From Gammaproteobacteria bacterium (GTDB taxonomy: Bacteria > Pseudomonadota > Gammaproteobacteria > QZLD01): DNA of 64,000 nucleotides. Every line of letters starts with the position of its first letter. The first letter of the stretch is position 1. Shown here in pieces: positions 59,000-63,834 of the stretch. The stretch lies in the NCBI GenBank assembly GCA_033852155.1, contig JAWSVA010000004.1:7830-71829 (forward strand). The letters are read 5' to 3'. The notes under the pieces are model-generated. The model made no database searches. It worked only from the letters and a program-made list of their open reading frames with translations, and was not told the origin of the DNA. Position numbers and translations under genes: made by a program.

Positions 59000-59166
59000 A
59001 CTTACTTACCCTTCTATGTTTTTTTAATGCTCCACTATAAAAATTAGTACAATATAGAGCTAATAGCCACTATCTATAACCAAATTTGTGACGCTAGTAA
59101 TAAAATGGTACTGATAGTGCATAGATATAGTTATATATTAGATGCGTCAAAATTTAGTTGTACTGA

Positions 59167-59907
59167 ATGAAATTACTTTATGAGAAGAAAATGACTGCCA
59201 TTTTTACAAAAATGATTATTATCACCGTATTAATACTATGCATAACAAACAATGCATTATCTCAAGATTCTAACTATGAAGACCTAAATCAGTTAAAAAG
59301 CAAAACAGCCACCTTTTTGAAGCAACAGTATAGTGATCACGATATTTCACCAATAGTAACTATTAACAATATTGACAAAAGATTAAAGCTACAAAAATGC
59401 TCACAAGAGCCAGAATTAAAAATAAAATCGAGCAACAAAAAATTTGGTCCAGTCACAGTCTTTGTAAAATGTACTGGTGAAAAGCCATGGTCTTTATATA
59501 TACCGGCCACAGTAACAGGATACGCAAATATTTTAGTATCGGCTCAAGGAATATTTAGAGGTACCATATTAGAATCAAAGCACATAAAAACTCAAAAAAC
59601 TGATTTATCAAAAGCTTATTATGGATATTATGCAGCCCCAAAAGAAATAATAGGCATGCAAGTTAGTAGGACAATCCCTGCCGGCATAATTATTAATCAA
59701 TCTTTTATAGAGCTGCCTGATATTATTAAAAAAGGGCAAAATGTTTATATCATAGCTTCAGCTAAGGGAATAAATGTTCAATTAAAAGGGGTAGCCTTAA
59801 TGAATGGTAAGCTTGGGCAAATAATTAAAGTAAAAAATTCATCTTCAGGCAAAGCTATACAAGGAAAGGTAATATCATCTTCAAAAGTCATGGTTGCTTT
59901 AGATTAA
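59167..59907 (+). CDS. flgA: Flagellar basal-body P-ring formation chaperone FlgA
   Basis: A signal peptide is present. The C-terminal SAF/FlgA domain includes GKLGQIIKVKNSSSGKAIQGKVIS. Synteny is divergent cheV with flgM-flgN downstream. The start may be the internal MTAIFTK. Confidence 0.8.
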   Translation: MKLLYEKKMTAIFTKMIIITVLILCITNNALSQDSNYEDLNQLKSKTATFLKQQYSDHDISPIVTINNIDKRLKLQKCSQEPELKIKSSNKKFGPVTVFVKCTGEKPWSLYIPATVTGYANILVSAQGIFRGTILESKHIKTQKTDLSKAYYGYYAAPKEIIGMQVSRTIPAGIIINQSFIELPDIIKKGQNVYIIASAKGINVQLKGVALMNGKLGQIIKVKNSSSGKAIQGKVISSSKVMVALD

Positions 59908-60006
59908 ATACATAGGTAACATAATTATTAAGCTGCTGAAATGACTAAAAATTTATCAGCAGGCTGCTCAAAAAAACAAAAAATCAACCTTTTTACATAA
60001 AAACAC

Positions 60007-60033
60007 TAAAGTAATATTTATTGCTGCCGATAA
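60007..60033 (+). promoter_or_regulatory. Sigma-28 (FliA) class promoter upstream of flgM.
   Basis: The sequence TAAAGTAA-N11-GCCGATAA matches the FliA consensus TAAAGTTT-N11-GCCGATAA almost perfectly. It lies about 115 nt upstream of the flgM ATG. Confidence 0.7.
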
Positions 60034-60148
60034 AATATATGATAGCTAGCAAAGGCAACAAGATGCTGCCGAAAATACGTAGTTTTGTTGAGCAAGAATT
60101 ACAGGGAATTTATAGTAAATGCTCCCCAAGACACAGAGGAACTAATCA

Positions 60149-60465
60149 TGAGCAATATAATCGATAGCGGTTCAACCCTTAGAAATATGGGGTTAGCTGA
60201 CAACAAAAAAGCACAGGCCAACAGTAGCCCAAAAGTTGCTCCTGAAAGCAATGTAGCAGCAGTAAACACTGATTCAGCTGACAAAGTTGAGATCTCAACT
60301 GCTTCAGAAAAATTATCACTAGTTAGAGAAACTATTGCATCGACACCTGAAGTTGACACTGCAAGAGTTGAAGATATTAAAGCAAAAATTGCTGCCGGAG
60401 AATACCCTGTAAACCCTGAGCAAATCGCTGACAAGATGATTGACTTGGAGAAATTGCTCTCCTAG
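60149..60465 (+). CDS. flgM: Anti-sigma-28 factor FlgM
   Basis: About 105 aa from the ATG at 60149, preceded by AGAGGAA. The track start at 60085 is an upstream TTG extension. The C-terminal amphipathic region DTARVEDIKAKIAAGEYPVNPEQIADKMI is typical of FlgM. Confidence 0.8.
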
Positions 60466-60479
60466 ATTACAATAACCAG

Positions 60480-60965
60480 ATGAATACAAATAATAAAATT
60501 CAAGAATTTATTGAGTTGCTTCAAGATGCAACATGCGCTTCAACTGATCTTCAAAAACTCTTAAAGCTTGAGATGCAACTTCTAGCGTCTCGCAAATTTG
60601 AAGACCTCAACGAAGTTCTTACCAAAAAAATGAAAATCATCGATCAACTTGAAAGTCAGGATAAGATGCGCTCTGAACTCTTATCCTCTGTAGGCTATAC
60701 AGCAGATGAAACTGGAACAAAGAAGTTTTTATCTGACAATGAAAGCCAAGAACTTGCATCAGCTTGGCAGAAGCTTATGGATATAATCAAAGAGTGCCAA
60801 ATCATAAACCAATCTAATGGAATGGTGGTATCTAAAAATCAAGCTCATATAAAGCAAGCAATGGACATAATTACTGGTGGAAATAATTCTGGCAGCAACG
60901 ATACTTATAATAATAAAGGGGTTCAAAGTTATAGTTCATCTCGCAGAGACATATCTAAAGCTTAA
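60480..60965 (+). CDS. flgN: Flagellar export chaperone FlgN-like
   Basis: 161 aa helical protein. It lies directly downstream of flgM in the conserved flgM-flgN arrangement. Confidence 0.7.
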   Translation: MNTNNKIQEFIELLQDATCASTDLQKLLKLEMQLLASRKFEDLNEVLTKKMKIIDQLESQDKMRSELLSSVGYTADETGTKKFLSDNESQELASAWQKLMDIIKECQIINQSNGMVVSKNQAHIKQAMDIITGGNNSGSNDTYNNKGVQSYSSSRRDISKA

Positions 60966-60989
60966 TACCCACAATTAATTAATCTACGA

Positions 60990-61715
60990 GTGGGGCATTT
61001 CATTAGAATGCACGAAAAAGAATTCACAAAGATCACCAACCGCGGGCAATTACGCAATATTTTAGGTCAAATTTGCAATAAAAATGCAATGCTTAATATT
61101 AGCATTGACGGTAGCAATGATATTTTTTCCAGCGCTCTGCTGGACATTAATGAAAAAAAGAAACTTTTAAAATTAGATGAGCTTAACCCTCAAAATGGAC
61201 ATGATCTAATCAAGAAAAGTTCCATACTAAAGGTGCACTGCAGACACTCAGGAAGTGAATCAATATTTAATCTTAAAATTAAAAATATAGGCATAGAAAA
61301 CGATATTTATTATTACCTAGCCTCAATTCCAGCAGAAATTAATCATTATCAACGCCGCAATTCATTACGTGTTTCCCCAGCACTATCTCTTGAGCCTGAA
61401 ATTGTAATTTTCAGCAACGGTTTTCATACACCAGGTAAAATACATAATATTTCATATTCTGGAGTTGGGGGAATTATAGAAGGCCCCTCCATTCCTGAGC
61501 TTGATGAAACATATTCTATACAGATATCATTTAACACCGAAGCACCAATAATAACCCCTATTAGAATAAAGTTTATTGGGGCCGCAGGACACAAAGGCAT
61601 ACGTCGATTTGGAGCTACTTTCACTAACTTAACTCCAGATGATGAGCAAAGAATAACCAACATGATCAATAAAATTCAACGTTACTATATCCGTCGTGGG
61701 AATATCACTACATAG
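60990..61715 (+). CDS. YcgR/FlgZ-like flagellar brake protein (PilZN plus PilZ, predicted c-di-GMP binding)
   Basis: 241 aa. The c-di-GMP switch motif RRNSLR (RxxxR) and NISYSG (N/DxSxxG) are both intact. Its position after flgN matches Pseudomonas FlgZ. Confidence 0.75.
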   Translation: MGHFIRMHEKEFTKITNRGQLRNILGQICNKNAMLNISIDGSNDIFSSALLDINEKKKLLKLDELNPQNGHDLIKKSSILKVHCRHSGSESIFNLKIKNIGIENDIYYYLASIPAEINHYQRRNSLRVSPALSLEPEIVIFSNGFHTPGKIHNISYSGVGGIIEGPSIPELDETYSIQISFNTEAPIITPIRIKFIGAAGHKGIRRFGATFTNLTPDDEQRITNMINKIQRYYIRRGNITT

Positions 61716-61897
61716 CCCCCCTCATTTTTACAAAAAACACATCAAAAATGTGACACGAGTCTCATTTTTAACTATAATTAAATTCCGTAGAAATAATGTT
61801 GTTGAACAAAGGATTAATACGCATTCAACACCGATACGAGCCAATGCGTCAACTCAGCAGCTAACCAACCCGTAAACAGTGATGTTGTGGAAATAAA

Positions 61898-62086
61898 ATG
61901 AACCTAGAAAATATTACAGCAGAACAAATAGCGGCAAACCGCAGAAGTGACCAACGCAGAACAGAGACAGACAGAAGAACAACCTTCCGTTTTTTAATGG
62001 AGAAGCCTAATCGCAGATCAGGAAGAGACAGACGAGCCAATCAAGACATTTGGAGCGAGCAGCTATTTCTACGCACGGGCAACTAA
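61898..62086 (+). CDS. Arginine-rich small hypothetical protein (62 aa), paralogue of the 62326 ORF.
   Basis: It shares the motif N-R-R-x3-R-R-T-x2-D-R-R-x3-R-F with the ORF at 62326. Most differences between the two are synonymous, including switches between the CGN and AGR Arg codon families. That pattern argues for selection at the protein level. Confidence 0.4.
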   Translation: MNLENITAEQIAANRRSDQRRTETDRRTTFRFLMEKPNRRSGRDRRANQDIWSEQLFLRTGN

Positions 62087-62325
62087 ACATAATACTTTAA
62101 TCATTACAACCGTACCATTAACTATGATTTAATATAATTAAAAGTTTTATTGGCACTTAACTTCATAATTACAATAAAAATACTTTTCCAGAATCAACCT
62201 CACCGCACAATAACATTATACTAAGCCCTGAAATTAATTTTAAGAATGGTCTTTTGTAAAGCTTTTTGCTTGCAATTTATTGCTCAGCAGATGCAGTCGG
62301 CAACTAAAGTAAAAATAGAGCTATT

Positions 62326-62439
62326 ATGAAAAACCTTAAAGATATGGTTCTTAATGAGAGTAACCGTAGACTTAGAGAACGGAGGACTAGCTGTGATCGC
62401 AGAAATCACATCAGGTTCGCGCATCAGGTGAGCATCTAA
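62326..62439 (+). CDS. Arginine-rich micro-ORF (37 aa), paralogue of 61898..62086, possibly frameshifted.
   Basis: It reads MKNLKDMVLNESNRRLRERRTSCDRRNHIRFAHQVSI. A second DRR-containing segment (NDRIVYFDRRDKKALLEPEIL) continues in another frame up to 62500. This mirrors the two-DRR layout of the 61898 ORF. Confidence 0.3.
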   Translation: MKNLKDMVLNESNRRLRERRTSCDRRNHIRFAHQVSI

Positions 62440-62505
62440 ACGACCGTATAGTTTATTTTGACCGCAGAGATAAAAAAGCTCTTCTCGAACCTGAAATTCT
62501 ATAAA

Positions 62506-63834
62506 CTAAGCTTTAATTAACTTCTGACAAATTTTGATAACACTCGCTCCTTTTTCTGCAAATGGTTGGCAGTAACAATATCCAACCATACAAGCTATCT
62601 CACCCCCAATATATATTAAAGGTACTGAGCTTCGTTTCCATGGTGGAATTCGATATTCTTGAAATAATTTCTTCACTTCGTGAGAACTATTGCGACCAAA
62701 AGGACGACAACGTTCACCACCTTGACGGTAGCCTATTGAAATATCTTTTCTATCAATACATTTTTTGCTCAATCCAATGCCTGCCTCATCAATAGCAACA
62801 AGGCTATATCGTTCATTTAAAGCAACGGCAGCATTAAGAGTCCAACTCTTTTCCTCAAATAATCCACTGTTTTCTTTAATGGAGTCGAGATACAACATCC
62901 CTTGATAACGGCGTATAATGCCAAAACCCCAGTCTAAAACAGGATTTTTATCTGCTTTTGCATTCAATAAAGACTCAATTCCAGACTCAAATCGATCAGT
63001 ATTTGGCAAAATAATACCGTTATTACGGATCCACAAACGCAAAATATTTTTTTGCTGCACGAAATCAAGCTGCTTTAGCTCTTCAACGCTAATCAAATTC
63101 TCCGCACAGATAAGTTCTAATTGAATGCGAGCCGAACCATCTATTTGCTCACCCGCCTCCTTACAATGATTTACACTGCGCAACAATGCCTTTTTAGCTC
63201 CAGGCCATCGTTTCTCCAGCAGAGGAATAATCTCATTTCGTAATAAATTGCGATCAAAATCAGACTGCTGATTGGTTGGATCTTCAATCCACTTCAACTG
63301 TTCCTGTTTGGCATATGTTTCGAGTTCTTTACGGGAAATTCCTAAAAGCGGCCTAAACAATTTTCCTTCGCCTAGCTTTCTTGACTCAGGAATACCGCTC
63401 AGCCCCTGCACCCCTGCTCCACGCAATGCTTGTTGTAAAAAGGTCTCAACTTGATCATCAGCATGATGCGCAAATAGCATAGTATCTGTGCATTTATTCA
63501 ATAACTGTTCAAATGCGTTATAGCGAGCATTTCTCGCAGATAGTTCAATACTTTCACCAGGGGCTTTTTCAAGATTTAATTTCACTAATTTAAAATTGAT
63601 TTCATAGCTTTCAGCTAACTCACTACACAAATTTGCCCACTGAGAGGAAGCTTCCTGCAGTCCGTGATCAACATGTACAGCAGTGATTTTCTTGTTGGAT
63701 AATTTCTCTGAATTTTCAGCGATTATATGAAGCAAAACCGAGGAATCCAGTCCACCACTAAAAGCAATCCAAATATCACCAACATTTGGATTCAAAAGGA
63801 TTTTATCGATTATTTGTTGATTAACACTTGGCAT
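62506..63834 (-). CDS. tilS: tRNA(Ile)-lysidine synthetase
   Basis: The PP-loop is AFSGGLDSSVLLHI. The likely start is MPSVNQQ at 63834. The track start at 63945 adds a hydrophobic 37-aa extension with no counterpart in known TilS proteins. Confidence 0.85.
   Translation of the reverse strand: MPSVNQQIIDKILLNPNVGDIWIAFSGGLDSSVLLHIIAENSEKLSNKKITAVHVDHGLQEASSQWANLCSELAESYEINFKLVKLNLEKAPGESIELSARNARYNAFEQLLNKCTDTMLFAHHADDQVETFLQQALRGAGVQGLSGIPESRKLGEGKLFRPLLGISRKELETYAKQEQLKWIEDPTNQQSDFDRNLLRNEIIPLLEKRWPGAKKALLRSVNHCKEAGEQIDGSARIQLELICAENLISVEELKQLDFVQQKNILRLWIRNNGIILPNTDRFESGIESLLNAKADKNPVLDWGFGIIRRYQGMLYLDSIKENSGLFEEKSWTLNAAVALNERYSLVAIDEAGIGLSKKCIDRKDISIGYRQGGERCRPFGRNSSHEVKKLFQEYRIPPWKRSSVPLIYIGGEIACMVGYCYCQPFAEKGASVIKICQKLIKA

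Follow-up and report, generated by a model that had tools for sequence, protein, structure and literature searches.

The 64,000-nucleotide (nt) stretch of Gammaproteobacteria bacterium DNA analysed here (GenBank assembly GCA_033852155.1, contig JAWSVA010000004.1, positions 7,830 to 71,829 of the forward strand; hereafter the window) contains two very short arginine-rich open reading frames (ORFs), termed copy1 and copy2, which lie next to the gene of a PilZ-type flagellar brake. The best explanation as a whole, with an estimated probability of about 0.7, is that copy1 and copy2 are paralogous micro-protein genes of an unnamed family, that copy2 is broken, and that the core shared by the family is a motif that would fold on a ligand. 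Comparisons of the two frames with each other and with their relatives show that 61898..62086 and 62326..62505 are tandem paralogs from an old duplication, which encode Arg/Asp-rich proteins with a predicted length of 58–62 amino acids (aa). They also show that copy1 is intact whereas copy2 is disrupted by a 2-nt insertion, which is predicted to cut its product after the first half-module.

Copy1 and copy2 as paralogous protein genes

The motif N-R-R-x3-R-R-T-x2-D-R-R-x3-R-F is found in both ORFs, and the two products match each other in BLASTP with E = 3e-5. Their Smith–Waterman score is 56, as compared with a mean of 24–26 (standard deviation 4.4–5.0) for composition-preserving shuffles (n = 5000), and this score is reached by 0/5000 shuffles with the 37-aa ORF of copy2 and by 1/5000 with the repaired 58-aa product. 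The 19-codon core is identical between the copies at 10/19, 13/19 and 7/19 of the first, second and third codon positions, respectively. The proportion of synonymous differences (pS) is saturated at 0.79–0.91, the proportion of nonsynonymous differences (pN) is 0.39–0.50, and aligned Arg codons differ in family between the copies (AGA/CGC and CGT/AGG). Because of the saturated pS, the codon-position pattern and the Arg codon-family switches, the likeness is kept only at the amino-acid level, indicating that it is old and is held at the protein level. In the six frames of the window, a hidden Markov model (HMM) of the family described below matches only copy1 (E = 1e-19) and the 5' part of copy2 (E = 3e-8); the next-best match, below threshold, is the displaced 3' piece of copy2 (62397..62501).

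Four copy1 relatives, together with three copy2 relatives that are intact (58–62 aa), have come out of word-indexed protein searches. A scan of GTDB species genomes, together with look-ups of the encoding contigs, has yielded ten loci from about six lineages, all with the order flgA-flgM-flgN-pilZ-copy1-copy2-<tilS-<accA. The flgM-flgN-pilZ order 5' of copy1 is the same as in the window in loci L001–L008 and L010, and the orthologs of both copies invariably lie between pilZ and tilS in the six lineages. Copy1 orthologs are 58–87% identical (61–87% for the four relatives in alignment A2), and copy2 is a single intact ORF of 58–62 aa in all six related lineages, as at L001 6354–6530. The ratio of nonsynonymous to synonymous substitution rates (dN/dS), obtained by the Nei–Gojobori method (NG86), is 0.06–0.35 among copy1 orthologs and 0.11–0.25 among copy2 orthologs, with dS ranging from about 0.5 up to saturation, indicating purifying selection on the protein in both copies.

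That the repeat likeness might stem from a structured RNA or from chance ORFs is suggested by the shortness of both ORFs and by a modest conserved structure in the 5' untranslated region (UTR) of copy1. However, dN/dS is far below 1 at saturated dS for both genes, the paralogs are alike only as amino acids, with Arg codons switching family, and the motif is common to about 125 protein clusters. Moreover, an Rfam scan of 61650–62560 gave no match better than E = 2, and selection at the codon level is seen instead of a covariance-model match. The low ortholog dN/dS and the lack of an Rfam family therefore lead to the rejection of the RNA and chance-ORF readings, whose probability is close to nil; on this codon-level evidence, copy1 and copy2 are real protein genes. 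An earlier note made from the letters and ORFs of this DNA (hereafter the sequence-only reading) had described two paralogous protein-coding micro-genes at these coordinates, with the shared motif, with Arg codons switching between CGN and AGR, and with selection acting on the protein rather than on an RNA or a chance ORF. The ORFs and motif recovered, the codon pairs, the dN/dS values and the Rfam result all agree with this description, as do the orthologs of both genes at the same position in six related lineages. Two checks that it proposed, a dN/dS-type comparison between the copies and a search for homologs and synteny, gave the pS and pN values and the conserved gene positions above.

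The nearest named relatives, L001 and L002, are gammaproteobacterial metagenome-assembled genomes labelled PJM12_PHB; PJM12 is a plastic sample kept for 369 days at the Yokosuka port site for a study on marine biofilms that degrade plastic (PMC10817984). The window shares 100% identity with two independent Logan assemblies of the same organism, L016 over 59119–62257 and L019 over 60949–62293, which confirms every base of copy1. Among the roughly 15 billion predicted proteins of one collection, in which the flanking FlgN and PilZ proteins are present, the exact copy1 protein is missing; either the micro-gene escaped gene calling there or this very allele has not been recorded.

The frameshift in copy2

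Alignment of the DNA with L001 and L002 shows that copy2 of the window has two extra bases. Where L003 reads ATC AGG TTC GCA CAA GGG GAG CAG, the window reads ATC AGG TTC GCG CA[TC] AGG TGA GCA. When 62424–62425 are deleted, the frame reads IRFAQGEH.., sharing AQGE with L003, and the product of 58 aa falls within the length range of the orthologs. The insertion, which is found in the window only, leads to a stop at 62437 and pushes the second half of the gene into the +2 frame. It also completes a repeat that was imperfect before, giving a perfect 8-bp direct repeat (CATCAGGT, 62409–62416 and 62422–62429), which would be the expected outcome of a templated replication slip. In the 3' part of copy2, an Ile (NDRI, ATA at 62448–62450) replaces an Arg shared without exception by the 92 aligned family members, and a Pro stands where six out of six orthologs have Leu or Ile. 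The sequence-only reading had already described one copy as apparently frameshifted, and the intact relatives of 58–62 aa and the two extra bases bear this out; the other frame that it had noticed after 62437 is the +2 frame and extends to 62505. Its view that each copy has two DRR segments holds for the segments themselves and fails in one unit, since the first unit of the second segment of copy2 is DRI.

Among the origins considered in that reading, namely a pseudogene, a sequencing frameshift and a recoding site, the first two both retain appreciable probability and the third is rejected. Programmed −1 (+2) ribosomal frameshifting past the stop at 62437 would make use of the +2 frame, which is open 3' of the stop and encodes the expected second half-module. 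However, an X_XXY_YYZ slippery heptamer occurs nowhere in copy2 (62326–62440), the orthologs are all single ORFs, and the shift is a simple 2-nt insertion. Because there is neither a slippery heptamer nor an ortholog with a shift, copy2 lacks both marks of a programmed −1 site, and recoding is very improbable. An assembly or sequencing artefact, which would leave two intact genes with copy2 encoding 58 aa, is a less probable explanation. It would account for the intact copy2 of all six related lineages and for a displaced frame that is still open as far as the ortholog stop, and the window seems to be a metagenome-type contig, with PilZ and FlgN recorded on a 120,678-bp NCBI contig and in Logan assemblies. 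Yet a 2-nt insertion away from a homopolymer is atypical of read errors, and it completes the direct repeat in the manner of a replication slip. The family-wide invariant Arg and the conserved Leu have been replaced 3' of the shift, a separate 10-nt insertion lies in the −35 region of the copy2 promoter, and elsewhere the locus agrees fully (100% identity) with two independent assemblies, arguing for a good consensus quality.

Since the 8-bp repeat, the Arg-to-Ile and Leu-to-Pro replacements and the 10-nt insertion in the −35 box favour a real mutation, the insertion is probably genuine and copy2 a young pseudogene rather than an assembly error. Three points weigh against a pseudogene. The branch-specific ratio of nonsynonymous to synonymous changes is 7:7 in copy2 and 4:4 in copy1 and thus is not raised in copy2, as an artefact would also predict; no independent assembly or metagenome contig was found over 62326 onward; and the 37-aa product of copy2 could keep some activity. 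As checks on the frameshift, neither the 37-aa ORF nor tilS gave a hit when its exact product was looked up, and an exact 31-mer scan of JGI metagenomes was likewise empty. Either as a young pseudogene or as an assembly error, the frameshifted copy2 matters locally only. The L016 and L019 contigs, which carry the flgN and pilZ of the window, end at 62257 and 62293, respectively, 30–70 nt 5' of copy2; the end of a Logan contig before copy2 could reflect low coverage or an assembly-graph branch caused by strain variation at copy2.

A widespread family with five [D/E]RR units

An HMM built from eight clade sequences (alignment A2) and searched against 1.84 billion (1.84e9) cluster representatives retrieves 125 proteins at E ≤ 1e-3, mostly of 50–90 aa, and the family comprises about 125 clusters at 50% identity. 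Its consensus is (Y-x-G-P)-E-R-R-x3-R-R-x3-D-R-R-x-[MI]-I-R-F-E-P-x-K-x-D-R-R-S-G-K-D-R-R-x5-W. The core of about 40 residues consists of five [D/E]RR units with fixed spacing, ERR-x3-RR-x3-DRR-x3-RF-x5(7)-DRR-x3-DRR-x5-W, and the exact 3-3-3-5-3 spacing is found in 81 of the 137 members that were parsed. The residue before RR is E or D in 125/137 members in the first unit and D in 129/137, 95/137 and 114/137 in the third, fourth and fifth units, respectively, and a Trp lies within nine residues after the core in 111/137. The genes of the window conform to the general pattern [DEN]RR-x3(4)-RR-x3-DRR-x3-R[FYW]-x5(7)-[DNP]RR-x3-[DG]RR with W within nine residues, as follows. Copy1, with the core NRR-x3-RR-x3-DRR-x3-RF-x5-NRR-x3-DRR-x5-W, parses exactly with spacings 3,3,3,5,3; copy2 orthologs parse as the x7 variant; and copy2 of the window itself retains the first half of the core only, as a result of the frameshift and the R-to-I change.

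About 20 members of 122–161 aa have a second architecture, in which an N-terminal transmembrane (TM) helix and a four-Cys domain precede the C-terminal module. The Cys domain, C-x23-C-x5-C-x-C with four invariant Cys residues, follows a conserved LPL, and searches of Pfam and of structures gave no match for it. Examples of this anchored variant are P0013, P0023, P0031 and P0044, and L050 3674–4129, L059 1231–1659, L068 33–473 and L080 152–568. Two long membrane proteins, L054 3896–5485 and L055 2157–3779, carry looser N-terminal RRSGKDRR repeats; when read by eye, the repeats look to be followed by a TM segment, a HAMP domain and a class III nucleotidyl cyclase domain. If this is true, related Arg-rich repeats would also serve as tails on signalling enzymes.

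The AlphaFold2 model of copy1, built from the 92-sequence alignment, has no secondary structure in residues 12–50, with a predicted local distance difference test score (pLDDT) of 70–80 and a predicted template-modelling score (pTM) of 0.21, and ends in a short C-terminal helix. In the model of the anchored variant, the TM helix and a small alpha/beta Cys domain are confident and the Arg-rich tail is not. The Arg-rich core is thus predicted to be disordered when free.

Searches of Pfam and NCBIfam with the window proteins, the distant members and all 92 aligned members have assigned no family, and PHROGs and PADLOC gave no match to the family proteins. The only stray matches among the 92 members are to the Arg-rich tails of DeaD_C and RNase E, at E > 0.01. 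A tblastn search of plasmids with one family member gave no match, and literature searches on the motif strings, on the DRR motif and on small Arg-rich cyclic di-GMP (c-di-GMP) binders found nothing on this family, whose members are annotated at their sources as 'hypothetical protein' only. The family is therefore widespread and unnamed, and is without a match in the libraries and literature searched. The motif that the sequence-only reading could not place thus finds the family libraries equally empty, even though the proteins belong to a sizeable family. Small proteins are systematically missed by annotation. Two other candidate identities have been rejected: a twin-arginine (Tat) signal peptide, for lack of a hydrophobic h-region, and a toxin-antitoxin pair, since copy1 and copy2 are paralogs and not partners.

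Comparison with known arginine-rich motifs and proposed function

The closest known counterpart is the arginine-rich ARR motif of the Caulobacter proteins CleA–E (Nesper et al. 2017, PMC5677366; Hee et al. 2020, PMC7382256), together with CSP, a peptide that sequesters c-di-GMP. Cle proteins have a tandem [Y/F]xGP[D/E][R/K]R as their ARR consensus (PMC5677366). The ARR/CSP peptides have 19–36 residues, bind a c-di-GMP dimer at a 2:1 ratio with nM affinity and fold on binding; in CSP, DRR-x11-[R/K]R-xx-D and two Tyr residues serve to bind the c-di-GMP dimer, which is intercalated, and the peptide is unfolded alone (PMC7382256). The family resembles these peptides in being a short linear Arg-rich motif that is disordered alone (here by prediction), in the acidic residue that precedes the Arg pair in the DRR units, and in the conserved aromatic residues around the Arg units. 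The DRR-x11-RR spacing occurs in 113/137 family members including copy1, and a single YxGPERR-like lead-in precedes the first ERR in 51/137. There is also a flagellar link, as Cle proteins act on the motor and copy1 and copy2 adjoin a YcgR/FlgZ brake.

There are also differences. The family has five units instead of two and never a tandem YxGP, so that the tandem [Y/F]xGP[D/E][R/K]R is absent from the 51 members with one unit as from the others, and it has RR-x3-D in place of the [R/K]R-xx-D of CSP. Its members are stand-alone proteins (50–90 aa) or tails on a TM/Cys-rich protein, whereas the Cle motif sits on a CheY-like receiver, for which no Response_reg match is found in family members. 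Furthermore, the family occurs in Gammaproteobacteria and other metagenomic lineages and Cle in Alphaproteobacteria. The family may act like ARR by analogy, and it is not a member of the Cle ARR family.

Two further classes share features with the family. The core contains RRxxxR, as in the PilZ switch RxxxR (PF07238), at three places (ERRxxxRR, DRRxxxRF and RRxxxDRR), and DRRxxIRFE resembles the beginning of a PilZ domain, in which a beta-strand follows RRxxxR. However, the family lacks [D/N]xSxxG, has no predicted strands or beta-barrel and is too short for one, and its proteins have no Pfam PilZ match at E ≤ 1. The lambda N and HIV Tat-Rev type arginine-rich motifs (ARMs) are arginine-rich RNA-binding peptides. 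The family is like such peptides and tails (ARMs, DUF1127, DeaD and RNase E) in being small, rich in Arg and predicted to be disordered and in giving weak compositional matches, and unlike them in its conserved acids, its rigid periodic spacing and the lack of a family-level match.

The predicted disorder, the five rigidly spaced [D/E]RR units, the three aromatics and the use of the module as a tail of membrane proteins together suggest a linear motif that folds around one ligand. On balance, by analogy with the systems above, this ligand would more likely than not be a guanine-containing nucleotide or RNA. The core would then be an intrinsically disordered linear motif whose folding requires its ligand, with the Asp-Arg-Arg triads reading guanine edges (Arg on O6/N7 and Asp on N1/N2) and the conserved Tyr, Phe and Trp stacking on bases. 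The free micro-proteins would buffer the nucleotide or pass it on, and the membrane-anchored Cys-rich variants would use the same tail as a sensor. The conserved acids beside the Arg pairs argue for base-specific (guanine) rather than backbone recognition, and a nucleotide is therefore slightly favoured over generic RNA. That the ligand is c-di-GMP specifically can be put forward only tentatively from the likeness to CSP; RNA or another nucleic acid is just as tentative a candidate, and the ligand would otherwise be something else. It is more speculative still that the family members are free-standing peptides that sequester c-di-GMP or a guanine nucleotide by folding around stacked dimers or tetramers, the pair of this clade tuning YcgR/FlgZ and members elsewhere serving as a cytoplasmic sensor tail. 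If so, they would form a new and widespread class of c-di-GMP receptors that has arisen independently of the alphaproteobacterial Cle ARR.

An Arg-rich micro-protein that binds RNA or another nucleic acid, with a post-transcriptional or ribosomal rather than a second-messenger role, is by itself less likely than not, and as a type of ligand binding it is an equally serious rival of nucleotide binding. The proteins are small, basic and predicted to be disordered, and the DeaD_C and RNase E regions are the sole weak matches of the 92 members. The variable monocistronic contexts described below resemble those of many general RNA-binding or stress micro-proteins, and one published account describes the small Arg-rich DUF1127 proteins as binding RNA (PMC11380419). 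Opposed to an RNA ligand are the acids before four of the five RR pairs, which are uncommon in proteins that bind the phosphate backbone and typical of those that read guanine bases, the absence of a Pfam match to DUF1127 or any RNA-binding family, and the rigid spacing, which points to one defined ligand geometry.

Several results in turn weigh against nucleotide recognition of the c-di-GMP kind. Copy1 (IAANRR) and copy2 (NESNRR) are without the YxGP lead-in, and the exact CSP motif DRR-x11-[R/K]R-xx-D occurs in 6/137 members, neither window protein among them. Comparison by hhalign with the CleD 140–174 peptide gave a probability of 5% over 11 columns and hence detected no homology, and only ClpB, at E = 0.6, came up when PDB sequences were searched with the profile at E ≤ 10. 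The stray DeaD_C and RNase E matches suit an RNA ligand equally well. Moreover, in a context sample made up of three long contigs plus 72 neighbours at 70 metagenome loci, there is no recurring neighbour, and GGDEF, EAL, PilZ and flagellar genes are not enriched.

In that sample, the genes of distant members are monocistronic, with a spacer of 100–600 nt upstream and unrelated neighbours; 83 Pfam families are represented among the 72 flanking genes, the commonest being seen four times. Since distant members have varied neighbours, proximity to the flagellar brake belongs to this clade only and is weak evidence for function. The sequence-only reading had drawn attention to the c-di-GMP-binding brake next door; the PilZN+PilZ neighbour is there, and the functional link is weakened by the unrelated neighbours elsewhere. 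If c-di-GMP or a guanine nucleotide is bound, the family would provide a genetically encoded binding module of about 40 residues, a natural counterpart of engineered c-di-GMP-sequestering peptides; if RNA is bound, it would be a new bacterial arginine-rich-motif family.

Layout of the locus

The features of the locus are collected in Table 1. The product of the gene upstream of copy1 has a PilZN domain (PF07317, E = 2.7e-11) and a PilZ domain (PF07238, E = 7.5e-6) and is encoded 3' of flgM-flgN, the features of a YcgR/FlgZ flagellar brake. The premature stop that closes the 5' ORF of copy2 is TAA at 62437–62439, and the stop of its +2 frame (62503–62505) abuts that of the convergent tilS gene, whose orthologs in L003–L009 contain the Pfam domains ATP_bind_3, TilS and TilS_C.

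Table 1. Coordinates of genes and sequence elements around copy1 and copy2 in the window
Feature	Position	Strand	Basis or remark
flgM	60085-60465	+	Context; 5' of flgN
flgN	60480-60965	+	Context; directly 5' of the pilZ gene
YcgR/FlgZ-type PilZN+PilZ protein, 241 aa	60990..61715	+	Context; outside the Arg-rich family
Palindrome TGTGA-N6-TC(T/A)C(A/G)	61749-61764	+	Kept in 7/7 lineages
Predicted sigma-70-type promoter of copy1, GTGACA-17 nt-TATAAT	61750..61778	+	Promoter scan, 11/12
Putative copy1 5' UTR, about 113 nt, conserved hairpins	61785..61897	+	RNAalifold
copy1, intact Arg-rich micro-protein gene, 62 aa	61898..62086	+	ORF, family HMM, orthologs
Promoter-like element of copy2; -10 TATACT at 62217-62222	62187..62222	+	Conservation; putative function
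copy2 5' part, 37-aa ORF, first half-module NRR-x3-RR-x3-DRR-x3-RF	62326..62439	+	ORF, family HMM
Two-base insertion, best placement TC	62424..62425	+	DNA alignment with L001 and L002
copy2 3' part in +2 frame, ..GEHLNDRIVYFDRRDKKALLEPEIL*	62426..62505	+	Frame reading past the stop
tilS (tRNA(Ile)-lysidine synthase), convergent neighbour	62506..63834	-	ORF list; context only

Promoters and 5' untranslated regions

Each gene probably has a sigma-70-type promoter of its own, which would give a transcript with about 100 nt of 5' UTR. The −35 and −10 hexamers of copy1 are conserved in 7/7 lineages (the window included), while the synonymous sites of the gene are saturated. The palindrome that overlaps the −35 box and spacer of copy1 reads TGTGA-N6-TCTCA in the window and TGTGA-N6-TCACG in L002 and L006. 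It resembles a site of the CRP/Vfr/Clp family, whose consensus is TGTGA-N6-TCACA, and the position of its centre near −28.5 would suggest repression or occlusion. A sigma-28 promoter 5' of copy1 has been considered and rejected, as CCGATA at 61831–61836 is not conserved in relatives and there is no properly spaced TAAA.

RNAalifold applied to the copy1 5' UTR of five lineages predicts 23 pairs in three conserved helices, with compensatory changes at 4 of the pairs and a weak covariation term of −0.88 kcal/mol. The last helix (CCGTAAACA / TGTTGTGG) overlaps the ribosome-binding region. Two GGA motifs are seen in this UTR, ACAAAGGAT at about 61808 and GTGGAAA just 5' of the ATG. Together, the helix and the GGA motifs suggest possible translational control by structure or by a CsrA-like binder.

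The copy2 element CTTTAC-N-GCACAAYAA-N3-TATAMT is kept in five other lineages. In the window only, a 10-nt insertion (TCCAGAATCA, 62187–62196) splits its conserved −35 box CTTTAC. In L003, the copy1–copy2 spacer is only 85 nt and is without the copy2 promoter-like element (L003 5922–6000 versus L001 6187–6353), and copy2 is intact with a GTG start. Because of this short spacer without the element, copy2 of L003 is probably co-transcribed with copy1.

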